From an uncultured Candidatus Peribacteria bacterium (GTDB lineage Bacteria > Patescibacteriota > Gracilibacteria > UBA4473), in contig CAYFJZ010000006.1 of NCBI GenBank assembly GCA_964343715.1, positions 96,425 to 160,424 on the forward strand: DNA of 64,000 nucleotides, in the 5' to 3' direction. Both the position numbers and the translations under genes were made by a program. Below, one piece after another: positions 238 through 38,117 of the stretch. The notes under the pieces are model-generated. The model saw nothing but the letters and a program-made list of their open reading frames with translations. It ran no database searches and was not told where the DNA came from. Within the stretch, counting starts at the first letter, position 1, and each line of letters opens with the position of its first letter.

Positions 238-287
238 AGTTAGTTTGTTCCTAAGCTCCTGGTTGATAAGTTCACAAGTTCAATCAT

Positions 288-316
288 TCTCTACTCTTTG
301 TTCTTCACTCTTAACA
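288..316 (+). repeat. CTACTCTTTGTTCT-type low-complexity motif
   Basis: TCTCTACTCTTTGTTCTTCACTCTTAAC lies directly upstream of the SPFH start codon. Confidence 0.7.
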
Positions 317-326
317 CTCCCCCCTC

Positions 327-1105: not shown

Positions 1106-1299
1106 GTCATCCCGAATCTGCTGCGGTTTTTCTTTAAATCAGCGACAAAATGAGGGATCCTCGAAATATTAAATGAGAAAAAACACAAAAGAAGTGACAA
1201 GATAAGCAACACTTTCTTCAGTTCTTATCTCATGAAACAAAAGGAAGATTTCTCGTGTTATGTTTATTTGCTTCGGGGAGGTCCGTGACTCGAAATGAC
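1106..1299. repeat. REPIN/MITE-like inverted-repeat element, copy 1 (194 bp)
   Basis: Termini GTCATCCCGAAT ... ACTCGAAATGAC. Inner boxes ATGAGGGATCCTCG (1150-1163) and GGAAGATTTCTCG (1243-1255). Confidence 0.75.
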
Positions 1300-5234: not shown

Positions 5235-5257
5235 GGAGCAGGGTTGTACCCTGCTTC
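5235..5257. repeat. REP-like hairpin GGAGCAGGGTTGTACCCTGCTTC
   Basis: 9-bp stem AGCAGGG../..CCCTGCT. Lies between convergent genes. Confidence 0.8.
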
Positions 5258-7587: not shown

Positions 7588-7627
7588 TTCCCCGGCTACT
7601 ACGGTAGCCGGGGAAAGACTTATTTTT
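7588..7627 (+). terminator. Intrinsic terminator
   Basis: 12-bp stem TTCCCCGGCTAC/GTAGCCGGGGAA followed by a T-rich tail. Confidence 0.7.
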
Positions 7628-13670: not shown

Positions 13671-13762
13671 GCATCATCCCTTCGAGAGAAAACCCCTCCC
13701 ATCCATATGCCGCCACAGAGCAATCTGTGGCGGTTAACTTATAATATAAAAAATCCATCAGT

Positions 13763-13795
13763 CTTTACTCTCTACTCCTTGTTCTCTACTCATCC
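13763..13795 (+). repeat. CTACTCCTTGTTCT-type motif
   Basis: CTTTACTCTCTACTCCTTGTTCTCTACTCATCC lies directly upstream of a 38-codon ORF (13798-13914). Confidence 0.7.
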
Positions 13796-14641: not shown

Positions 14642-14790
14642 GTCATCCCGAATGAAGGAAGAAGAAAGACCAAAGAGATGAGGGATCCCCAAGTGTATCA
14701 AAAGAAAGAGAACTTTCTGAAGAATAGGGGAATTAAGGGATTCCTCGGGTGAAGGTTGTCCGTTTTAGGGGGGGCTTCACTCGGAATGAC
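14642..14790. repeat. REPIN/MITE-like inverted-repeat element, copy 2 (149 bp)
   Basis: Termini GTCATCCCGAATGAAG ... CTTCACTCGGAATGAC. Inner boxes GATGAGGGATCCCC and AGGGATTCCTCG. Confidence 0.8.
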
Positions 14791-14921: not shown

Positions 14922-17009
14922 ATGTATATCCCGTCTATAAGGCTCTTTTGGGGGCTGCTCGGCCTCTTTCTCCCCCTTGCCACCTACGCCACACCACGAC
15001 TGGTGATTACCAAAATCGATGCCTGTGCCACCTCCGATGCCGAATGGATAGAAGTCTACAATCAGTCGGAGTCAACGCTTGATCTGAGCGAGTGGCGTTT
15101 TTTTGAGCAGGGAAGTAATCACACTCTAAAGGCCCTCGAAGGCCAAAACACCCAACTTATCCCCAATTCTTCCACCGTCATTGTGGACAACCCCACCGCC
15201 TTTTCGGAAAAATATCCCCAATACACCGGACCTATCATAGACAGCAGCTGGGGAAGCCTAAAAAACAGTGGAGAAGAAATTGGGATGAAAAACGAAACGG
15301 GAGCGGAAGAAGAACCATTTTTTACCTATCCCAAATGTGAATCCGACACTTTTTTGGCCCGAGTAGGCCATGACAACAACCCTTCGCAGACAGAAAACTG
15401 GATACTTCAGCCCCTTTCCGAAGCCTTTTTGTCTTTTGATCCCCCTCAATCAGAGCCGGAAGCGGAGGTCCCAGACACCGAGACGGAAACAGAAACCAAT
15501 CCTTCCAAGCAAGAAGGATCCCCAGAATCATCTGTGCCCGAAGAAACAACAGAAGAAGAGATTCCTCAAGAAGAGGCCCCAAAAGAGGAAGAAGAACCGC
15601 TCACGATTCCTATTCAAGAACCCGCTCTAGAAGAAGAGGCCGTTGACTCAGAACCAGATCCTATCGAGGCAGATGGGGGTCCTGTCCCAACCTTTACCGT
15701 CCAGATTACCGAAATTCAGCCCGTAACCATAGGCACAGAAGAGGAATGGTTTGAGTTTGTCATCACGCCTACACAGAACGATCCCATCGATCTTTCGACC
15801 TGGAGTATTCAGAACGGAAAAGGCACCAAAAAACCTTTCATCGAAGCAAAAGACGCTCTCAAAACCAATCAGGTGATCGGTTGGGCCCCCGAAACACAGG
15901 TGTGGACCCCGAATTCAGAGCCTGCTTACTTTTTCTTTGCGCCTTCTCCCCTCACACTGTCCAATGGAGGCAGCACGATCCAGTTGTACCAAAACGACCA
16001 ATTGTTAACCCAAATCACCTATCCAAGTACCAAAAACGGCACCACAAACGGAAAAAAATGGGCCGAGACCTGGAATTTTGCCCCCAATACTCAGCAGCTC
16101 GTCCCCCTGATCACCCAACAAGATCACGATCAGCTTATTCACAGTCAGGGATTGTCTTCGCTCAATTTTCCAGCTGCGCCAGACCACGTACAACTGCAGG
16201 TGAATCAGATCAAATCGAACCCGGGATCCCCCGATCAGATCGATGAAATAAAACTCACCATAACCCATTCCAGTGAAAAACAGGCCAACCTCAAATACCT
16301 CGAAATTCTGCACAATGGGACGACCCTGGTCTGGATAGAAACCGATTTTTATGTTCGAGAAGGGGAGGAATTAAAGCTGCAGTTTGGCCTCCCTTTTTCT
16401 GGGATAGCCGAAACACCTACCGGCTACCTCCTTACCACCGACAAGAGAGGGGGGCTGGTTCAGTCAGGCGGAACAGTCGAGGTACGGCTGTTTGGTTCTA
16501 CCAGTCACGAAACAACAGAAGACTTTGTCTGTTGGGGGGAAGAATTAACCGCTTCTGAACAAGAAAGAGTCAGTAATGCTCAAGATCAGGACCACTGGAG
16601 TGGCAATTGCCTCCTTCCTCCCGATCAAGAAGGTACTTATTTGCAGAGGAAAGAAGGAAATCCCGATACCAACACCAAAGAAGATTTTGAGACCAGCCTT
16701 CCAACCAAAGAAGAAACAGTTATTCCCACCGCCGTGCTCGCTCCCGTCCCAAAAGCCACCGGATCCGCTCCCACATTCAACCGCCGAGCCCTAAAAGACT
16801 GGCTCAAGGCCCAATTACACGATTTTGTGAGTCAGAAAAAAGCCGAACAGGTAAAGTCCCTTTCGTTTTATCAGTCTTTCTTGAGTCGGTTAACGCCGGT
16901 GGCAAAACAGCTGTTGGTAGAGCGGGCGAGGGCTTTCTGGAAAGCAGAGGCATTAAGAGATTCCTCGTATAAAGGTTATACGTTTCAGGACGGTCTTCAC
17001 TCGGAATGA
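14922..17009 (+). CDS. Secreted protein with two lamin-tail-domain (LTD)-like modules and an acidic linker
   Basis: Signal peptide. LVITKIDACATSDAEWIEVYNQSESTLDLSEWRF and VQITEIQPVTIGTEEEWFEFVITP...IDLSTWSI fit the LTD pattern. Glu/Pro/Thr-rich linker. The last 14 codons lie inside repeat 16967-17011. Confidence 0.75.
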   Translation: MYIPSIRLFWGLLGLFLPLATYATPRLVITKIDACATSDAEWIEVYNQSESTLDLSEWRFFEQGSNHTLKALEGQNTQLIPNSSTVIVDNPTAFSEKYPQYTGPIIDSSWGSLKNSGEEIGMKNETGAEEEPFFTYPKCESDTFLARVGHDNNPSQTENWILQPLSEAFLSFDPPQSEPEAEVPDTETETETNPSKQEGSPESSVPEETTEEEIPQEEAPKEEEEPLTIPIQEPALEEEAVDSEPDPIEADGGPVPTFTVQITEIQPVTIGTEEEWFEFVITPTQNDPIDLSTWSIQNGKGTKKPFIEAKDALKTNQVIGWAPETQVWTPNSEPAYFFFAPSPLTLSNGGSTIQLYQNDQLLTQITYPSTKNGTTNGKKWAETWNFAPNTQQLVPLITQQDHDQLIHSQGLSSLNFPAAPDHVQLQVNQIKSNPGSPDQIDEIKLTITHSSEKQANLKYLEILHNGTTLVWIETDFYVREGEELKLQFGLPFSGIAETPTGYLLTTDKRGGLVQSGGTVEVRLFGSTSHETTEDFVCWGEELTASEQERVSNAQDQDHWSGNCLLPPDQEGTYLQRKEGNPDTNTKEDFETSLPTKEETVIPTAVLAPVPKATGSAPTFNRRALKDWLKAQLHDFVSQKKAEQVKSLSFYQSFLSRLTPVAKQLLVERARAFWKAEALRDSSYKGYTFQDGLHSE

Positions 17010-17030
17010 CATGAGGTCATCCCGAATGAC
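16955..17030. repeat. Partial REPIN/MITE-like copy: a right arm abutting a left terminus
   Basis: AAGAGATTCCTCG...CTTCACTCGGAATGAC (right arm, 16955-17010), then ATGAG, then GTCATCCCGAATGAC (17016-17030). Confidence 0.7.
16967..17011 (+). repeat. 45-bp direct repeat A flanking the RAYT cassette
   Basis: GTATAAAGGTTATACGTTTCAGGACGGTCTTCACTCGGAATGACA. Identical to 17780-17824 except one G/A. Encodes the last 14 codons and the stop of the LTD protein. Confidence 0.9.
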
Positions 17031-17058: not shown

Positions 17059-17081
17059 GGAGCAGGGTTGTGCCCTGCTCC
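17059..17081. repeat. REP-like hairpin GGAGCAGGGTTGTGCCCTGCTCC
   Basis: Lies upstream of RAYT and is followed by AGTTCTATCAAAAAGTCAG, which recurs after the hairpin at 17654-17680. Confidence 0.85.
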
Positions 17082-17148
17082 CTAAAGTTCTATCAAAAAG
17101 TCAGCACAAGAGACCCACAGAAAAGTAATTCATTTACTCTCTCCAAAA

Positions 17149-17652
17149 ATGCCCTCCAAAAGAATTCCAAAAGACCTAAATCAAGGAATATACTTTCTCA
17201 CTTTAAGCGTGAAAAACCTCTATTATCTCTTCGATCGACACAACCGGTGGGGGATACTCGCTTCGAGCCTAGAATTTTGTCGGAGAAAGAAAGCACTTAA
17301 AGTATTCGAATATGTCTTTATGCTCAATCACATTCATTTACTAGTCCAATCCCCAGATGTTTCAGGTTTTCTTCGAGATTTTAAAGCCTATACCTCCAAA
17401 GAATTGAGAATAAATATCCAAGAAAGTGAGCCAACGGTTGAAAAACTGTTTAAAAAAGAGGGAAAGTTTGAGCTCTGGGAAAAGACGAATATGCCCATAG
17501 TAATTGAAACAGAGAAGTTTTATTTTCAGAAGGCTCAATATATCAGGCAAAATCCCGTAAAGAAACAATACGTAGAAAAAGAGGAACATTGGTATTGGTC
17601 ATCTGCGAACTCAAACGGAGGATTGGAAATAGACATAATTGAAGGACGATGA
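17149..17652 (+). CDS. REP-associated tyrosine transposase (RAYT; IS200-like Y1/HUH transposase)
   Basis: HUH motif in FMLNHIHLLV. Catalytic-Tyr helix QYIRQNPVKKQYV and the HWYWSSA tail. Flanked by inverted REP hairpins. Confidence 0.85.
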   Translation: MPSKRIPKDLNQGIYFLTLSVKNLYYLFDRHNRWGILASSLEFCRRKKALKVFEYVFMLNHIHLLVQSPDVSGFLRDFKAYTSKELRINIQESEPTVEKLFKKEGKFELWEKTNMPIVIETEKFYFQKAQYIRQNPVKKQYVEKEEHWYWSSANSNGGLEIDIIEGR

Positions 17653-17653
17653 A

Positions 17654-17680
17654 AGCCGGAGCTGGGCTGTGCCCGGCTTC
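17654..17680. repeat. Degenerate REP-like hairpin AGCCGGAGCTGGGCTGTGCCCGGCTTC
   Basis: Lies immediately after the RAYT stop and is followed by AGTTCTATCAAATAAGTCAG. Confidence 0.6.
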
Positions 17681-17748
17681 GAAACAGTTCTATCAAATAA
17701 GTCAGATCAGGTTTGAAGGAGGGGGGATACGTCACATTAGAAACGTGC

Positions 17749-17771
17749 GGAGCAGGGTACAACCCTGCTCC
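17749..17771. repeat. REP-like hairpin in inverted orientation, GGAGCAGGGTACAACCCTGCTCC
   Basis: Its loop GTACAA is the reverse complement of the TTGTAC loop of the copy at 5235. It differs by one base from the reverse complement of the TTGTGC loop at 17059. Confidence 0.85.
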
Positions 17772-17779
17772 GGCAAAGG

Positions 17780-17824
17780 GTATAAAGGTTATACGTTTCA
17801 GGACGGTCTTCACTCAGAATGACA
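17780..17824 (+). repeat. 45-bp direct repeat B flanking the RAYT cassette
   Basis: Same 45-mer (44/45 identical). It ends 1 nt before the stop codon (17825-17827) of the convergent gene. Confidence 0.9.
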
Positions 17825-20735: not shown

Positions 20736-20781
20736 ATACTCTCTACTTTCTACTCTCGACTCTATACTCTATACTCTCCCC
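20736..20781 (+). repeat. CTAC/TACT-word motif
   Basis: ATACTCTCTACTTTCTACTCTCGACTCTATACTCTATACTCTCCCC abuts the ATG at 20782. Confidence 0.65.
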
Positions 20782-21285
20782 ATGAAAACCACCCTCCTCA
20801 TGGCCCTTTCCCTCGACGGAAAGATCGGAAAAGATTCCGAACACTTTCCCGACTGGACCGAAAAAGCCGACAAAGCACTTTTTGTGAAAGAAACCAAAGC
20901 CGCAGGAGTCATTATAATGGGGGCCAATACCTATAAGACGATCGGGAAACCCCTTCCAGGACGAAAAAATATCGTTCTTACTCGCAACCAAACCCTCACC
21001 TCCGACGATCCTGACTTGGTCTACACCTCCGATTCCCCTCAAGCAATTCTTCAGAACCTAGAAAGCGAAGGGTACTCCCAAGTCATCTTGGCCGGAGGCG
21101 CCCAAATAAACACCCTCTTTGCTCAAGCCGGTCTCATCGACGAAGTCTTACTCACGTTTTCGCCTGTTTTAATCGGGGAAGGGATCGGCCTTTTCAGCGA
21201 AGACGTTGACCTCAGCCTCGAACTCCAACACCTCGAAAGACTGGGGGAAAACTCCATCCAGGCCCGTTATAAGGTAGTGAAATAA
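20782..21285 (+). CDS. RibD_C / dihydrofolate-reductase-like reductase
   Basis: ALSLDGKIG, VIIMGANTYKTIGKPLPGRKNIVLT and ILAGGAQINTLFAQAGLIDEVLLTFSPVLIGEG fit the RibD C-terminal/DHFR-like fold. ATG at 20782. Confidence 0.8.
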   Translation: MKTTLLMALSLDGKIGKDSEHFPDWTEKADKALFVKETKAAGVIIMGANTYKTIGKPLPGRKNIVLTRNQTLTSDDPDLVYTSDSPQAILQNLESEGYSQVILAGGAQINTLFAQAGLIDEVLLTFSPVLIGEGIGLFSEDVDLSLELQHLERLGENSIQARYKVVK

Positions 21286-21877: not shown

Positions 21878-22017
21878 GTCATCCCGAATGATCTACTTTC
21901 AGAAGACAATATTATTGAGATGAGGGAGCTCTGAAGTTATCATTCTTAAAGAAAATGCCTTAAGAGATTTCTCGTTTCATGTTCGTCGCTTCGAAAAATT
22001 CTGTCACTCGAAATGAC
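21878..22017. repeat. REPIN/MITE-like inverted-repeat element, copy 3 (140 bp)
   Basis: Termini GTCATCCCGAATGA ... GTCACTCGAAATGAC. Inner boxes GAGATGAGGGAGCTC and AAGAGATTTCTCG. Confidence 0.8.
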
Positions 22018-23960: not shown

Positions 23961-26663
23961 TTACTGCTTCGCGTTCTTTGGTTTTGTTTTTCCCGAATCA
24001 TTTTTAATTCCGGCCTTCTGATCCGAAACATTTTTTGGAGTAGTATTCTTGTCCTTTGCCGCAGGTGCTTTGGTGTCTTTTGACGCCTCTTCTGCAGGTC
24101 TTGAAGTCTTCTTTGGGGCCTCTGCAGGGGGCGTTTTTTTCTCTGATGCTTTGGGCGTCTCCTTTTTTGTTTCTGGCTTACCTCCAGATTGGGGGGATGA
24201 ATCAGCACCTTTCTTTTGATTCTGGCGCTTTTCATCCTCCGGACGTGACCATCGGTTAATCTTACTTTCTACCACTTCTCGGGGTTTGGCATATCGTTGT
24301 CGTGAAAATCGAACGATCTTTTCGGCGCGTTCATCCAGATCATCCTCGATACTAAATTTTGGAGGAGGAAGCGTCTGTCCCGAAAAGACCGGCGTAGGCA
24401 TTCCGTCCACCAAAATTCGATTATAAACGGTATATTTTGGCAGGTTCACGAGGTCAATGGGTTCTACTTTTTCTTCATCAAATTGTTCCGCAAATACCTT
24501 GGCATCATCGACCCCTACCTGAAAAGAAATCAGGCTTCCCACATTTCCAAAGACCGCCGCGGCCACTTCTTCGCTCATCTGGGCGACGTACTGGTTAGCC
24601 ATAGTCAGACTTAGGTGATACTTACGGGCTTCGGAAAGAATCGTCGCAAAAGAGTCAGTCGCAAAGTTCTGGAACTCATCCACAAAGAGTGAGAAGTCCG
24701 GTCGTTTTGATTCTTCTACATCAGCTCGACTCATCGCATCGATCTGAAACTTCGTAATCAAGAGCGATCCGAGCATGGCCGAGTTGTCTTCTCCGATTTT
24801 TCCCTTCGAGAGGTTAACGATCACAATTTTACCGCTGTCCATAGCAAAACGCAGATCGAGGGTTGATTTGGGCTGGCCCACAATGTTTCGAATAATGGGA
24901 GTCGAAAGAAACTGTCCCACCTTGTTCTGGATCGGTCCGACGGCTTCGGCCAGCTTGGCCGGCTGAAGGGCCGAAAACTCGGTCTTCCAAAAACTCTGCA
25001 CCATCGGATCCTGCACGAAATGGAGTACTTTTTCACGATAGTGTCGGTCCACCAGCATGCGGGTGATCCCCAGCATAGTAGTGTCGGGCGCTTCTACCAG
25101 CGCCAGGATGGTATTTCGCAAAAAGTGTTCTAGTCGTGGCCCCCAGGAATCGATATTCAGTTTCTTGATCACGCCAATCAACCCCGAAGCAATGAGTCCT
25201 CGCTGTTCGGCATTTTTTCCCTCAAGCATGTTAAACGCAATGGGGAAGTCGCGATCGGCCGGATCAAAGACAATCACATCATTGGTTCGATTTTTGGGAA
25301 CATATCGAATAATTGCTTCGGCCAGATCTCCGTGGGGATCAATCACACCAACGCCTTTCCCGGCTAAAATATCGGAGAAAATCATGTTTTCCAGCAGGGT
25401 CGATTTCCCCATCCCCGTCTTTCCGATGATGTACACATGTCGTCGTCGGTCTAGTTCTCGGATGCCGTATAGATCGTTGATATCTCGAAAGTTGGTTCGA
25501 CCAATCAGGGTTATGCCTTTTTCAGTTTCCGAAGGAAGATTGACTGGGGGTTCCAACTTCGCCGAATCCACCCACTGAATAGCCGGAGAAGTTACCGTTT
25601 CAGTCGGCAGGTGAAACATGGTCGCCAGTTCTTCCTGAGACAAAGCAAAAGGCTCTTTACTTCGCCGAAAAACAATATTTCTGAAGGTGTCAGATTTGAT
25701 GTCTTGGGTTGTGGTAGAAACCGAAAAGTGATTCATCTGCGGCAACGAATACTGCTGAAAAGTTCCCGCAATTTCTCGAATTTTGGCCTCGGCCTGAAGA
25801 TCGGGCATGTCTTTGTCGCAGACATAAACCGTTCGAATATTGGTCGCAAAATGCAGACGATTGAGTTTGTCATAAGAGGCCGAAAAAACCGTTTCTCGAT
25901 CATGCCGCCCAGAAGTCTGAGCCTCACGATCCAAATCCTGTTCTTCGTCATCATTGTTGTTATTGTCAGAGGTCGTAGGAAGAATATTTGATCCTGGACC
26001 AGCCATCCCCGTCAAAAACAGCATCATACACCACAAAGGCGATCTCCACGTTCTGACGCCCTTTTCGGGAGAAAGACGAGCCCATTGATAGAGCAATCGA
26101 AACCAGTCCCATTGCCAAGGGCCTGAGCCAAAAAACCGACGCAGTGTTTTTTGGGCAATAGCGTTCCACTTGGGGGCTACGGGCGTAATAACAAACTGTA
26201 GGACGGCTGAATCATTCTTATCAGCCAAATGCGTCAAAGCTGCGGTCACCGGACCCATAGGATCTTCAAAGGCCTGCGCCATTTTGTCCTCAAACTGAGG
26301 ATATCGCTTAAAAGGGAAAACCGTCGGTTCGGCTGGGCGAAGGGTCGCCATGAGCACTTTTTTGTCCTTGATGAGCTTTTTGGTGAAAATATCCGGCACT
26401 TCTTCGATCTCAACTTCGGGATACTGCGCATAAAACTGCGAAGAAAGCAAGGTCTTGAGATGTTCAGGGATAACCACATAAAAATAAACCCGACCATGCA
26501 CTCGAGCAATCTCAAAACTAACGGCTTCTTTCCGGTGTTGTTTGGCCGATTTAAGCAGCAATCCATGCAGCGAGGCGAGTATCTGCTCAAACGCCATAGG
26601 ACCACGCTGATTCAGTCGCGGAACGGTGAGCCGGAGCACTGCTTTTTTATAAGACCTTTTCAT
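23961..26663 (-). CDS. VirD4/TraD/TraG-like (type IV coupling-protein-like) P-loop NTPase with Lys/Pro-rich tail
   Basis: Walker A GKTGMGKST, VGVIDPHGDL, Walker B LFVDEFQNF and RKYHLSLTMANQY. ATG at 26663 (a TTG alternative lies at 26699). TTGTCA-17-TATAAA promoter upstream. Confidence 0.85.
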   Translation of the reverse strand: MKRSYKKAVLRLTVPRLNQRGPMAFEQILASLHGLLLKSAKQHRKEAVSFEIARVHGRVYFYVVIPEHLKTLLSSQFYAQYPEVEIEEVPDIFTKKLIKDKKVLMATLRPAEPTVFPFKRYPQFEDKMAQAFEDPMGPVTAALTHLADKNDSAVLQFVITPVAPKWNAIAQKTLRRFFGSGPWQWDWFRLLYQWARLSPEKGVRTWRSPLWCMMLFLTGMAGPGSNILPTTSDNNNNDDEEQDLDREAQTSGRHDRETVFSASYDKLNRLHFATNIRTVYVCDKDMPDLQAEAKIREIAGTFQQYSLPQMNHFSVSTTTQDIKSDTFRNIVFRRSKEPFALSQEELATMFHLPTETVTSPAIQWVDSAKLEPPVNLPSETEKGITLIGRTNFRDINDLYGIRELDRRRHVYIIGKTGMGKSTLLENMIFSDILAGKGVGVIDPHGDLAEAIIRYVPKNRTNDVIVFDPADRDFPIAFNMLEGKNAEQRGLIASGLIGVIKKLNIDSWGPRLEHFLRNTILALVEAPDTTMLGITRMLVDRHYREKVLHFVQDPMVQSFWKTEFSALQPAKLAEAVGPIQNKVGQFLSTPIIRNIVGQPKSTLDLRFAMDSGKIVIVNLSKGKIGEDNSAMLGSLLITKFQIDAMSRADVEESKRPDFSLFVDEFQNFATDSFATILSEARKYHLSLTMANQYVAQMSEEVAAAVFGNVGSLISFQVGVDDAKVFAEQFDEEKVEPIDLVNLPKYTVYNRILVDGMPTPVFSGQTLPPPKFSIEDDLDERAEKIVRFSRQRYAKPREVVESKINRWSRPEDEKRQNQKKGADSSPQSGGKPETKKETPKASEKKTPPAEAPKKTSRPAEEASKDTKAPAAKDKNTTPKNVSDQKAGIKNDSGKTKPKNAKQ

Positions 26664-26716
26664 TCTATTTATTTTACCAGAAAATCGCGTTTGAGGCAAT
26701 GGTGAAAGACGCTTTT

Positions 26717-32367: not shown

Positions 32368-32444
32368 TTTAAGATTTGATAATTGTATGATAATTATATG
32401 ATAAAATTACACAAAATACCAGAAAAGCGACAGGGAGACCGAAT

Positions 32445-32477
32445 TTACTACTCCTTGTTGTCTACTCTTCACTCTTT
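32445..32477 (+). repeat. CTACTCCTTGTTGT-type motif overlapping the U32 3' end
   Basis: TTACTACTCCTTGTTGTCTACTCTTCACTCTTT. Its complement encodes ...KKSEE plus the stop TAG. Confidence 0.7.
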
Positions 32478-33862
32478 TTAAAGCTCGGGTTCTTCACCTC
32501 CTGCCGCACAAACGTCCCCGCCGGAACCTCTTTTTCACACTTTATCGAGGCCACTTTATTGGTATTCCCTCCATGCAAAGTATCCACTTCTTCCTCGCCA
32601 AAACGCATACCCGCTGCTTCAATAGAAAAATCATCCTCCATTCGAGGCAGAACAAATTCAAGCATCGCCCCGGTCTCAATCCGATTCTTCACCTCTATTT
32701 CCACTCGCCCGTCCTTCCAGCCTGTCACCAGACCACAAAACTCCTTCTCACTAGTCGAACGATTGCCCTCGTACTGAATATCCCCCTCACGCGGTTTTCC
32801 GTTTAAAAACCCTGGGAAAAAACCTCGATTGGCCGTCGCCTGGATCTCTTTCCACAAACCCGGATCAAAATCTTTCCCGGCTTTTAGGTCATCCAGGGCT
32901 CGGCGATAAGCTCGCGCCACCGTGGCCAAATAATAAGCGGTTTTATTTCGGCCTTCTACCTTGAGCGAAACCACCCCCGTTTTTGCAATATCCGCCAGAT
33001 ACTCAATCATACACATATCCCGCGAACTCATAATATGCGTTCCATGAAAGTCCTCCTCAACAGGGATAATTTCCCCCTTTCTTGCTTCCTCCTCAATAAA
33101 AGCCGACTTTTCAAAATCACGAATCGAACGAGTTTTTTCTTCATTAAAGTTCGATTCGTCCGGTGAAGCTATGGAATTTTTTTTATTTAATGCGAAGACG
33201 GAGTCTTCCCTTGTTTTTGAACAGTGGTCCGACACATCCACCTTCCGCCCCTGCTCATCATACACCTGATAATTCCAACGGCAGCTGTGATTACAGATTC
33301 CACGATTGGCATCTCGCCCCGAGTTGAATGTGGAGAGCAGGCATCGCCCCGAATAAGCCATACAAACCGCTCCATGAATAAAGATTTCCAGCTCCATATC
33401 CGGAATCCATTCGTGTACCTTGGCTACCTCTTTGAGCGACATTTCTCTCGCCAAGATAACTCGACTCACTCCCAGCTCACGCCAGAATTCCAGCGCGGGG
33501 GCATTTACCGTCGAAGTCTGTACCGAAAGGTGTTTATCAATAGAGGGGGCGTGTTCTTTGGCCAGCTTTAACACCCCAAAATCCGCAAAAATAATCCCAT
33601 CGGGCTTCACCCGCTCCAAAAACTGTAAATGATCCACAAACAGCCGCATCATCGTTTGATGCGGGAAGGCATTCACCGTCACATAGACTTTTTTTCCCTG
33701 CTTCTGGGCATAAGGAATAATCTCGGCCATATCGTCTTCGGTGAAGGTATTCTCTTTCGTCCGCAGCGAAAACATACTACACCCACAATAAATCGCGTCG
33801 GCTCCGTACCGAAAAGCGGTATAGGCCTTTTGTAGGTCTCCAGCGGGCAGTAGTAATTCCAT
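32462..33862 (-). CDS. Peptidase U32 family protein
   Basis: MELLLPAGDL...GADAIYCG, EIFIHGAVCMAYSGRCLLS and the C-terminal U32 beta-barrel region match. Confidence 0.9.
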   Translation of the reverse strand: MELLLPAGDLQKAYTAFRYGADAIYCGCSMFSLRTKENTFTEDDMAEIIPYAQKQGKKVYVTVNAFPHQTMMRLFVDHLQFLERVKPDGIIFADFGVLKLAKEHAPSIDKHLSVQTSTVNAPALEFWRELGVSRVILAREMSLKEVAKVHEWIPDMELEIFIHGAVCMAYSGRCLLSTFNSGRDANRGICNHSCRWNYQVYDEQGRKVDVSDHCSKTREDSVFALNKKNSIASPDESNFNEEKTRSIRDFEKSAFIEEEARKGEIIPVEEDFHGTHIMSSRDMCMIEYLADIAKTGVVSLKVEGRNKTAYYLATVARAYRRALDDLKAGKDFDPGLWKEIQATANRGFFPGFLNGKPREGDIQYEGNRSTSEKEFCGLVTGWKDGRVEIEVKNRIETGAMLEFVLPRMEDDFSIEAAGMRFGEEEVDTLHGGNTNKVASIKCEKEVPAGTFVRQEVKNPSFKKSEE

Positions 33863-34317: not shown

Positions 34318-34504
34318 TTTTGGTACTCCTCACGGAAACAACAACAAGGGGAAGCCGACTTCGACCACCCCCAAGAGTTTTTGGATAGACGGTACAAAAG
34401 CAGCTGACCTTGTTATACGAAACAATGTAAAAGAGCGAGGAATCACTAACGCTAAATATAAATACGATAAAGGTAAAAAGAACGCAAGGGTGTTTGTACG
34501 AAAA

Positions 34505-34539
34505 ACTCCTTGTTCTCTACTCTCTACTCTCTACTCTCC
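34505..34539 (+). repeat. CTACTCCTTGTTCT-type motif overlapping the ECF sigma 3' end
   Basis: ACTCCTTGTTCTCTACTCTCTACTCTCTACTCTCC. Its complement supplies the last two codons (GGAGAG, Gly-Glu) and the stop TAG. Confidence 0.7.
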
Positions 34540-35109
34540 TCCCTCCCCCCATCGTTCACGAATAGCCCTCAACGCTCGCAGCTGAATAATCCGAACATTT
34601 CCTTCTGATTTTTCAACCACATGAGCTGTTTCGGCAACAGAAAGACCTTCTAGGTATCGAAGCTCCAAAACCGTTCGCTGAAGTGCGGGAAGATCCGCCA
34701 AAATAGTATGGAGTTTTTCAGTGTTTAACTGCAGATTTGCACTTTCGTCCGGAGTAGGACGATCTTCATCTGGAATCTGCGTAAAAAAAGCACCTTCTTC
34801 TTCGTCTAGCCCCAAGAAGTCCTTTTTTCTTCGATAAAAATCGATAATCGTATTATTCGCAATACGAAACAGCCAGGCCGAAAAATGAGCGTTTTTGCGA
34901 GGCGAATATCGTTCAAAGTGATCTACCACCTTCAGAAATATTTGCGCTGTCAGATCAGCCGCTTCCTGGTTTTCGACCCGAAAAGACACATGACGATGAA
35001 CTTTTGGATGAAAGTAGTCAAAAATCTGAGCGAAACTATCTTCATCACCCTTCTGAGCCTTGGCCACTAAGCATTCAATGGCCTGAGAAGAAAGCGTACA
35101 AGGAACCAT
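34531..35109 (-). CDS. ECF-type sigma-70 family RNA polymerase sigma factor
   Basis: Region 2 (ADLTAQIFLKVVDHFERY, FSAWLFRIANNTIIDFYRRK) and region 4 (LPALQRTVLELRYLEGLSVAETAHVV). Confidence 0.88.
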   Translation of the reverse strand: MVPCTLSSQAIECLVAKAQKGDEDSFAQIFDYFHPKVHRHVSFRVENQEAADLTAQIFLKVVDHFERYSPRKNAHFSAWLFRIANNTIIDFYRRKKDFLGLDEEEGAFFTQIPDEDRPTPDESANLQLNTEKLHTILADLPALQRTVLELRYLEGLSVAETAHVVEKSEGNVRIIQLRALRAIRERWGEGGE

Positions 35110-35520: not shown

Positions 35521-35539
35521 AGAAGTACTAAGGCCTAGA

Positions 35540-35586
35540 CACTCTACTCTTTGTTCTTAACTTTTTACTCCCTTTACTCGTCTTCT
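35540..35586 (+). repeat. CTACTCTTTGTTCT-type motif overlapping the nrnA 3' end
   Basis: ACACTCTACTCTTTGTTCTTAACTTTTTACTCCCTTTACTCGTCTTC. Confidence 0.7.
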
Positions 35587-38094: not shown

Positions 38095-38117
38095 GAAGCA
38101 GGGAACAGCCCTGCTCC
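38095..38117. repeat. REP-like hairpin GAAGCAGGGAACAGCCCTGCTCC
   Basis: Same stem as the other REP copies with a variant loop. Lies downstream of the DAHP synthase gene. Confidence 0.75.

Follow-up and report, generated by a model that had tools for sequence, protein, structure and literature searches.

Intergenic elements near a RAYT gene as heads-outward pairs of hairpin units, probably CGTC-tagged repeats or a variant of them

How does a short repeat element fold when its two ends look like imperfect inverted repeats, and which enzyme would recognize that fold? The element at 14642–14790 of the window, i.e. of the whole 64,000-nucleotide stretch of DNA analyzed here, raises both questions. 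A preliminary description read this element and its relatives as copies of a REPIN- or MITE-like repeat in which the two ends pair into one long hairpin, with mismatches that turn into wobble pairs on the minus strand only, and it proposed a nearby RAYT gene as the source of the mobilizing enzyme. Our analysis leads to a different answer. The element consists of two opposite-strand copies of a small hairpin repeat, each paired within itself; its ends resemble imperfect inverted repeats because the left and right units differ in type, and the strand-specific wobble is an artifact of comparing these two unit types.

Anatomy of the elements in the window

Our inventory covers 81 kb, which is the 64-kb window together with 17 kb of its neighboring source contig (ENA ERZ930068, k127_85472, 174,924 bp; the window corresponds to its positions 17146–81145), and the genome to which it belongs is incomplete. 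The closest named matches, judged from aspartyl-tRNA synthetase (∼65% identity) and enolase (∼72–73% identity), are assigned to Candidatus Gracilibacteria, Peregrinibacteria or Patescibacteria. Within these 81 kb, we count three full doublets and one solo unit, and the RAYT gene has a truncated end on either side. The copies reported earlier at 1106–1299, 14642–14790 and 21878–22017 are confirmed: their inner boxes are present, and their termini occur far above chance, with six matches to the terminus GTCATCCCGAATGA at up to two mismatches where dinucleotide-preserving shuffles predict 0.58, and eight matches to the terminus TCACTCGGAATGAC where the same kind of shuffle, at the same tolerance, predicts 0.51. 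The copy that starts at 1106 carries two mismatches in each terminus. An extra right terminus, TCACTCAGAATGAC, came out of the same scan at 17810–17823. Mismatch-tolerant pattern scans found no further copies in the extra 17 kb of source contig, and one candidate copy at 68583–68704 was rejected as a chance match within coding-like sequence. The elements are built as follows.

14642–14687, plus strand: left unit of the element in question, reading GTC-AT-CCC-GA-A…T-GA-GGG-AT-C; its closing stem ATCCC/GGGAT is made of the left terminus and the left inner box
14688–14738: spacer of the element in question, 51 nt between the units, unconserved among copies
14739–14790, minus strand: right unit of the element in question, with the minus-strand reading GTC-AT-TCC-GA-GTGAAG…CTTCAC-CC-GA-GGA-AT-C; closing stem ATTCC/GGAAT, inner stem GTGAAG/CTTCAC
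1106–1299: second heads-outward doublet; left unit 1106–1159 (plus strand, CCC/GGG) and right unit 1247–1299 (minus strand, TTC/GAA, compensated relative to the unit that ends at 14790)
21878–22017: third doublet; left unit 21878–21929 (plus strand) with a degenerate closing strand, GGGAG instead of GGGAT, and right unit 21966–22017 (minus strand, TTC/GAA)
16959–17010, minus strand: solo unit, GTCATTCCGAG…CGAGGAATC, with closing stem ATTCC/GGAAT

Each element is a heads-outward inverted pair with one unit per strand; the units are 46–54 nt long, and the spacers of the three window doublets measure 36–87 nt. Within a unit, a 5-bp stem is followed by G·A and A·G oppositions and then by 1–6 bp, and the cores span 28–36 nt. 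The stem is ATCCC/GGGAT in left units and either ATTCC/GGAAT (units ending at 14790 and 17010) or ATTTC/GAAAT (units ending at 1299 and 22017) in right units. Additionally, the base after the 5′ GA complements the base before the 3′ GA, as A–T in left units and as G–C in right units. In other words, where the termini differ by C/T or A/G, the differences that had been taken for wobble, the inner box belonging to the same unit carries the compensating G/A or T/C change. Eight of the nine closing strands in the window end in ATC, and the base before GTC is T or C at five of the nine window heads and A or G at the other four. The interiors of the window copies are highly diverged (mean column identity 59%). 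As for the half copy that the preliminary description placed beside the RAYT gene, related sequence does lie there (a right-hand part of the element, at 16928–17010), but what it contains is no half: it is the complete solo unit on the minus strand at 16959–17010, which overlaps the 3′ end of an LTD-domain gene and holds that gene's stop codon inside its head.

Searches with the strings themselves retrieved little. The 14-mer GTCATCCCGAATGA hit at least 120 loci in genome contigs, chance matches only, with one Spirulina contig that has no second end. The literature held nothing relevant for the unit strings or for the peptides obtained by translating them. The public runs, which contain only low-depth contigs, showed no insertion polymorphism of the elements.

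Covariation, doublets and GIY-YIG genes in a wider family

A metagenome scan with the right-unit pattern, in which three positions were left degenerate, gave at least 120 loci. Among the 120 loci listed, 43 carry one conserved human-gut sequence that is not unit-like and that we set apart; the remaining 77, on many unrelated contigs, come from soils, sediments, groundwater and reactors, and their unit cores are very different. Do these units preserve the local pairing? Among the matches listed, the free positions of the scan pattern are concordantly Watson–Crick in 72 of 76 distinct matches, and where no complementarity was imposed, 121 of 167 distinct listed units have a fully Watson–Crick triplet, compared with 42 when partners are shuffled. 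An ends-only alignment of 99 distinct units among the listed matches has 94.6% of its cells paired (82.9% in shuffles) and contains 77 compensatory cells (20 in shuffles), values that none of 500 shuffles reached in either case; double changes occur in four of the six pairs, and controls with slid partners pair at 57% at most. Columns 4–5 and 24–25 of this alignment, A–T and T–A, are invariant in all 99 of these listed units.

Other positions define the unit more closely. Among the matches listed, the pair just inside the G·A oppositions is Watson–Crick in 135 of 145 units and takes four pair types, and the closing AT is followed by C in 142 of these units, at a position that the pattern did not impose; the invariance of GTC in the family is built into the search. 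The third base of the triplet is a pyrimidine in 143 of the 145 listed units, so that Y-GA-R is read on either strand; this is the sequence context that goes with tandem sheared G·A pairs. Triplet types among the listed matches include TCC, TTC, CCC, CTC, CTT, CCT, TCT and GCT, and the cores, which tolerate insertions, range from 7 to 64 nt. A GCGNAGC core, known as an exceptionally stable DNA mini-hairpin (PMC13037366), is present in 28 of the 145 listed family members and absent from the window copies. Minimal relatives of 25 nt, e.g. GTCATTCCGAGCGAAGCGAGGAATC, are the only ones that near the described size of a CGTC-tagged REP.

The preliminary description argued for selection on a single-stranded, strand-specific fold, and one part of that argument finds support. 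In predicted folds of the matches listed, the tag strand, i.e. the strand that reads GTC, is the more stable of the two strands for 85 of 100 units, with RNA and DNA parameters alike (p ∼1e-11). The fold in question, however, is a local hairpin in each unit, with the two units on opposite strands, and not a long hairpin of the minus strand. The six window units give a mixed picture, with a folding advantage of the tag strand in about half of them, and these predicted folds suggest decay; the window copies are probably old or decaying because they are few and have weak cores.

Pairs of adjacent units among the listed matches (n = 50) are oriented heads outward in 39 cases, in tandem in seven and heads inward in four. 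The three window doublets are among the 39 pooled here, and the scan pattern itself selected one unit of most of the metagenome doublets; 26 of the 39 listed doublets are heterotypic, e.g. CTT/TCC (8), CCC/TCC (4) and CCT/GCT (2). Complementarity between termini is therefore not maintained, and mismatch types are not limited to transitions. No target-site duplication was found in 38 of these 39 listed doublets, and inverted doublets of a small palindromic repeat without target-site duplication are REPIN-like, as the preliminary description had it. In this listed set, GTC is preceded at −1 by T or C and GAC is followed at +1 by A or G; over both ends of the doublets, the base before GTC is T or C in 75 of 78 cases.

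What enzyme might act on such units? A motif search followed by Pfam PF01541 (E 8e-10 to 2.6e-18) identified nine single-domain GIY-YIG ORFs of 79–113 aa in eight of the 77 unit-bearing loci among the matches listed and none in 163 control loci (1.19 Mb), an imperfect control because the queries for the control loci came from the unit loci. In three loci (L181, L188 and L239), units or doublets lie on both sides of the GIY-YIG gene at distances of 13–138 nt, and in a fourth (L196), a unit lies 174 nt from the gene. The same queries, together with precomputed Pfam lists, found no GIY-YIG gene in 81 kb of the 174,924-bp source contig of this incomplete genome.

With moderate confidence, we take the elements at 14642–14790, 1106–1299 and 21878–22017 to be heads-outward pairs of hairpin units of the CGTC-tagged REP or Ssn-related motif (SRM) kind, or of a variant of that kind, with an Ssn-type nuclease as their partner and with a RAYT that has a repeat of its own. 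The unit takes the form 5′-(Y)GTC, AT-NNN, GA, variable core, GA, N′N′N′-AT, C. It comprises an unpaired GTC tag, a closing stem of 5 bp with AT as its first bases, a pair of G·A oppositions in Y-GA-R, an insertion-tolerant core and an invariant C after the stem, and a window doublet joins a left unit on the plus strand, of type CCC/GGG, to a right unit on the minus strand, of type TCC/GGA or TTC/GAA. By analogy with the SRM kind, the hairpin would form in single-stranded DNA on the tag strand only, and a small single-domain GIY-YIG nuclease (Ssn) would bind it and cut a few nucleotides 5′ of the tag, so that each strand of a doublet would carry one cut site. The earlier proposal had been an HUH/Y1 enzyme; published work (PMC11893778) and our survey of loci point to small GIY-YIG nucleases, and an Ssn-type nuclease acting on single-stranded DNA is the likely partner by this analogy. 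Most simply, the RAYT cassette would have landed in, or recombined with, a pre-existing doublet.

The RAYT cassette and competing readings

The RAYT gene and the sequences around it are arranged as follows.

17149–17652, plus strand: RAYT gene, 167 aa, with HIH motif and catalytic Y region (YIRQNP); Pfam Y1_Tnp, E 5.8e-6; NCBIfam NF047646 REP_Tyr_transpos, 83.8 bits against a cutoff of 80
17016–17030, plus strand: truncated left head, GTCATCCCGAATGAC, without closing strand, 5 bp after the solo unit; left bound of the RAYT cassette
17780–17823, minus strand: truncated right head and core, 44 of 45 nt identical to 16967–17011, stopping exactly before the closing strand GA-GGA-ATC; right bound of the RAYT cassette
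17059–17081, plus strand: REP2 hairpin upstream of the RAYT gene, GGAGCAGGG-TTGTG-CCCTGCTCC (general form GGAGCAGGG-N5-CCCTGCTCC)
17748–17772, minus strand: REP2 hairpin downstream of the RAYT gene, inverted, with loop TACAA
17657–17680: degenerate direct copy of REP2
−1976, 5236–5256 and 38096–38116: dispersed copies of REP2, with no heads adjacent

A family model above its cutoff, an HUH motif, a Y region and flanking inverted repeats identify the gene as a RAYT, and none of the called genes in the 81 kb is recorded as belonging to any other transposase family. Because a further right terminus lies at 17810–17823, the gene stands between a left head (17016–17030) and a right head. Which repeat does this RAYT use? 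Its closest homologue, at 70% identity (L122, L123), is flanked by the inverted hairpins GGGAGCAGGGTTGCACCCTGGTCCC and GGACCAGGGTGCAACCCTGCTCC; homologues at 62% identity (L250, L252) have the hairpin types GGAGCAGGTTACAAACCTGCTCC and GGAGCGGGTTTGTAACCCGTTCC; and a homologue at 67% identity has a different hairpin. REP2-type hairpins thus flank the gene both here and in its homologues, and REP2 is therefore the specific repeat of this RAYT. No GTCAT unit with a closing strand was found near these homologues, up to 10 kb on each side, and the unit-bearing loci among the matches listed, 813 kb in all, yielded no RAYT homologue. The RAYT is accordingly a poor candidate for mobilizer of the elements: the conserved repeat of this RAYT and of its 62–70% identical homologues is another hairpin, and the RAYT and the GTCAT units are probably not partners. 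Loose contig ends in the source samples place REP2 in further contexts as well. Orthologous regions in relatives with a 77% identical enolase have neither units nor REP2, and because gene order around the sites differs in these relatives, no empty site can be defined.

One alternative gives the RAYT a larger role: the enzyme would act on long inverted repeats composed of a degenerate GTC-tagged unit plus REP2, and the doublets would be by-products. The cassette itself speaks for such composite ends, with a symmetric succession of head, 28–40 nt and REP2 on both sides of the gene, a right breakpoint exactly before the closing strand and a left one at about the equivalent position, and a 44-nt stretch duplicated around the cassette at 98% identity; there is also a published precedent (PMC3733652). 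We nevertheless consider composite ends unlikely. The dispersed REP2 copies (−1976, 5236, 38096) have no heads and the doublets have no REP2, the relatives of the RAYT have REP2-type hairpins only, and, since it is the complete unit with its closing strand that is widespread, the truncated heads are derived. On the same ground, we rejected an origin of the short elements by deletion from the RAYT element: complete units with closing strands are widespread, and the heads that flank the RAYT lack those strands.

That heads should bracket the RAYT cassette in the right orientation by pure coincidence is unlikely, and this arrangement counts against the reading that we favor. The symmetric truncated heads, the right break before the closing strand and the 98% identical 44-nt duplication could mean that a Y1/HUH transposase processes hairpins of the CGTC-tagged/SRM type, or, in a milder version of the same idea, that the G·A-containing, insertion-tolerant units are an unrecognized but widespread branch of Ssn-related motifs with GIY-YIG nucleases of their own and new single-stranded DNA specificities; we give this little credence. 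If it were true, RAYT activity on these hairpins would link the RAYT and Ssn-type repeat systems, and a RAYT between truncated units is, to our knowledge, the first known pointer to an interaction of both. The arrangement may also reflect only an insertion into a hairpin hot spot. The CGTC-tagged kind of repeat has been reported to "lack a dedicated transposase" (PMC3733652).

Might the doublets instead work at the level of RNA, transcribed with the flanking genes of the same strand as terminators, attenuators or mRNA stabilizers? All three doublets lie between plus-strand genes, at distances of 27–130 nt from where a gene starts or ends, each has short T runs after its right end, and REPs have often been proposed to act in RNA (PMC3733652). 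Terminator and promoter scans, however, found nothing at the three doublets, and the elements have no match in Rfam at gathering or E-value thresholds. Since the units are read on opposite strands, one transcript would carry one sense unit only. Additionally, the GCGNAGC core present in 28 of the 145 listed family members is exceptionally stable as DNA (PMC13037366), and Ssn binds single-stranded DNA and not RNA (PMC11893778). A function in RNA thus seems improbable to us.

The pairing of the element ends into one long hairpin, functional on the minus strand only by virtue of G·U or G·T pairs and recognized and mobilized by the RAYT, is very unlikely, although several observations do fit it. 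The preliminary description had all terminal mismatches as C·A or A·C on the plus strand when the heads are set against each other, and this holds for eight of the nine, the exception being one T·T in the copy at 1106. Whole-element folds with RNA parameters have lower z scores on the minus strand (−2.5 to −3.7) than on the plus strand (−1.1 to −2.2). A left head and a right head enclose the RAYT gene, and the lack of target-site duplication is what HUH enzymes predict. Against these points, the inner boxes, paired left against right, mirror the pattern of the heads: nine of their 13 mismatches are G·T or T·G on the plus strand, and they fall at the exact partners of the head mismatches (positions 5, 6 and 10 versus −4, −5 and −9). 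The net strand asymmetry is nil because each terminal C·A mismatch is mirrored by a G·T mismatch of the inner box; in the three window elements there are 2–4 mismatches per 14-nt head pair and 4–5 per closing pair.

Nor do the folds of both strands single out the minus strand. With RNA parameters, the plus and minus strands of the three elements reach −43.4 and −50.2, −45.4 and −43.2, and −35.4 and −36.1 kcal/mol, with no consistent strand preference, and with DNA parameters, no whole-element fold beats its shuffles (z −1.3 to +0.6). Heterotypic doublets elsewhere, such as CTT/TCC and CCT/GCT, give mismatches of all types, an outcome that the preliminary description had itself named as grounds for refutation. 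The RAYT-flanking heads without closing strands, the assignment of REP2 to this clade of RAYTs, the relatives without GTCAT units and the unit-bearing loci without a RAYT homologue weigh against the long hairpin as well.

A classical MITE derived from a DDE-transposase insertion sequence is effectively refuted: terminal inverted repeats of ∼14 nt, a length of 140–194 bp and an intergenic location would suit it, but 38 of the 39 doublets among the matches listed lack a target-site duplication, no DDE transposase is on record among the called genes of the 81 kb, and the supposed "terminal repeats" each form one half of a local hairpin, covarying with a partner inside the element.

Comparison with known systems

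CGTC-tagged REPs, described by Di Nocera, De Gregorio and Rocco in 2013 (PMC3733652), have an unpaired CGTC tag (also TGTC or CCTC), a stem of 8–9 bp that almost always starts with A–T, a loop of 4–5 nt and a 3-nt tail that starts with C. They mostly occur as dimers with the tags outside ("HH"), including heterodimers with different stems, and the kind includes Neisseria dRS3 and Rickettsia RPE-4 and RPE-6; no RAYT flanked by CGTC repeats was found (PMC3733652). The window units share with these REPs the unpaired tag, the A–T/T–A start of the stem, the C of the tail, the outward dimers and heterodimers, the intergenic sites with an occasional overlap of a gene end, and the lack of a transposase dedicated to them. 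They differ in that perfect stems of 8–9 bp and loops of 4–5 nt give way to a 5-bp stem, two G·A oppositions and a core of 7–64 nt (28–36 nt in the window), in the A or G that precedes GTC at four of nine window heads, and in the RAYT gene that lies here between two truncated heads.

Chenal et al. (2025, PMC11893778) extended dRS3 to the NTS (CGTCATTCCCGCGMAVGCGGGAATCYRG) and to "Ssn-related motifs" (SRM). [quoted passage not shown] The units described here have the same layout of GTC-AT, palindrome and AT-C, their invariant GTC and trailing C match the critical positions, and by analogy, they would follow the same directional logic, confined to single-stranded DNA. Furthermore, the unit type flanks small GIY-YIG genes on both sides in other contigs, much as in the arrangement NTS-ssnA-NTS. 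Unlike the SRM as defined, they have G·A oppositions and long cores, and there is no ssn gene in the 81 kb examined. The published degenerate SRM pattern, which does match the NTS as a positive control, matches no window unit and only one GTCAT unit among the 120 loci listed. Since this pattern goes unmatched and the sizes of stem and loop differ, we treat the units as a variant of the kind and not as a documented member of it. A lone match to the pattern in the 81 kb, near 7592 on the minus strand, is not a unit.

REPINs (Bertels and Rainey 2011; PMC3116915, PMC3337134) resemble the present elements as inverted small palindromic repeats with a variable spacer and no target-site duplication, near a single-copy RAYT gene that is itself flanked by inverted repeats. 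Unlike in REPINs, the two units are of different types, such that the long hairpin is imperfect and the local structure is the conserved one; the repeat of the RAYT is REP2 and not the unit, with only truncated heads flanking the gene; and the copy number is low, at three doublets and one solo unit in 81 kb. In Pseudomonas, RAYT genes with composite terminal repeats, in which a degenerate GTAG-1 unit adjoins an unrelated stem-loop, have been described (PMC3733652), and the cassette shares with them the order of a degenerate tagged unit and then an unrelated hairpin on both sides. Here, however, the tag is GTC and not GTAG, and whereas the Pseudomonas composites exist in hundreds of copies, there is no further copy in the 81 kb.

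What emerges is a known kind of repeat, the CGTC-tagged REP or Ssn-related motif, in a form that departs from the published definitions; we infer that the units belong to this kind or vary on it. This assignment places elements of a candidate-phyla-radiation bacterium within the kind, and it draws attention to a G·A-containing, long-core form that environmental metagenomes commonly contain, that the published search pattern misses and that is found beside small GIY-YIG genes. Should such nucleases prove to cut these units, the toolbox for cutting single-stranded DNA that was described in 2025 would gain new sequence specificities. For the element at 14642–14790 itself, the reading as a strand-specific wobble gives way to one that can readily be put to the test, i.e. 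two self-paired hairpins on opposite strands, probably drawn from the same kind of tagged, outward-facing and heterodimeric repeat that the CGTC-tagged REPs exemplify.

Organization of the RAYT cassette

The tyrosine transposase (RAYT) cassette is accompanied by a duplication of part of the right-hand repeat unit, a hairpin whose GTC end we call the head, whose 3′ stem half is the closing strand, and whose intervening sequence is the core. The duplicated stretch comprises 44 nt of head and core, and its two copies flank, one on each side, a block that consists of ATGAG, the left head and the RAYT cassette.

Duplication and junction in the window
16967-17010 and 17780-17823, 44-nt duplicated stretch, head and core of the right unit, 98% identity
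16997-17030, junction of right head, ATGAG and left head

The order right head-ATGAG-left head resembles a junction at which two ends abut; a circular form that integrated or recombined there could have produced it.

A short motif, (A)GTTCTA(T/A)C / ATAGTT(A/T)ACAA, follows the upstream REP2 hairpin (REP2 is the other repeat beside the RAYT gene) and is conserved across RAYT homologues; in the window, a second copy follows the second hairpin. It may serve the cassette as a promoter or for recognition.

Occurrences of the motif
Window, 17059-17110 and 17657-17710
RAYT homologue locus L122, 2501-2545
RAYT homologue loci L250 and L252, upstream of RAYT

Units in a coding sequence and in other contigs

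The solo unit is read through by the gene for an LTD-domain protein (14922-17009, + strand), whose TGA stop codon (17007-17009) lies inside the unit's head, such that the repeat encodes the final ∼17 codons. In other contigs, heads (GTCATTCCGAGTC plus 13-14 nt) are repeated in tandem without closing strands, each array ending in one complete unit; thus, truncated heads like those beside RAYT are not unique to the window.

Tandem head-only arrays
L153, 1756-1833, - strand
L164, 1370-1503
L216, 395-470

Still smaller palindromic elements appear to insert into unit cores: a small palindrome, TCCGCCAGCTGGCGGA, is found within the cores of otherwise different units at L137, L171, L178, L220, L230 and L247, and L228 contains further nested insertions.

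The 57-nt sequence GATTTCTCGAAAGATATTCACCAGCGGAGCCGATTGCTATGTTTCACTCAGAATGAC, conserved in many human-gut contigs, matched the scan pattern and accounts for 43 loci among the metagenome scan matches listed, at least 120 in number (e.g. L130, L134, L139); because its triplets do not pair, it probably belongs to a conserved gene rather than being a unit. At L044 (932-3432 of the Bacteroidales MAG contig CAVTIJ010000001.1), GTCATCCCGAATGA occurs eight times, exactly and on a single strand, at spacings of 125-457 bp, mainly ∼363 or 450; this series probably reflects tandem repetition or a repetitive gene and has no relation to the doublets, the heads-outward pairs of units.

Genomic setting and genetic code

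The window also carries a large DUF87/TraG-like ATPase gene (23961-26699) and an MBL-fold gene matching the Anti-Pycsar protein Apyc1. Several toxin-antitoxin pairs are present, ParE-like and PemK-like ones inside the window and RelB/ParE just upstream of it. Other repeats are present as well.

Other repeat families in the window
287-324, 13749-13786, 20746-20783, 32444-32481, 34501-34550 and 35521-35577, pyrimidine-rich repeats between genes, with the pattern CTCTACTCT(T/C)TGTTCTT (families D1 and D3)
21334, 38132, 39489 and 52169, AT-rich TTAATTGCTAATT repeats (family D2)

No tRNA genes were found in the 64-kb window. The best named matches of its genes are to Candidatus Gracilibacteria. Where UGA is read as glycine, in-frame TGA codons would be expected in long genes; despite the Gracilibacteria matches, the standard bacterial code leaves the long genes for AspRS (598 aa) and enolase (408 aa) uninterrupted.
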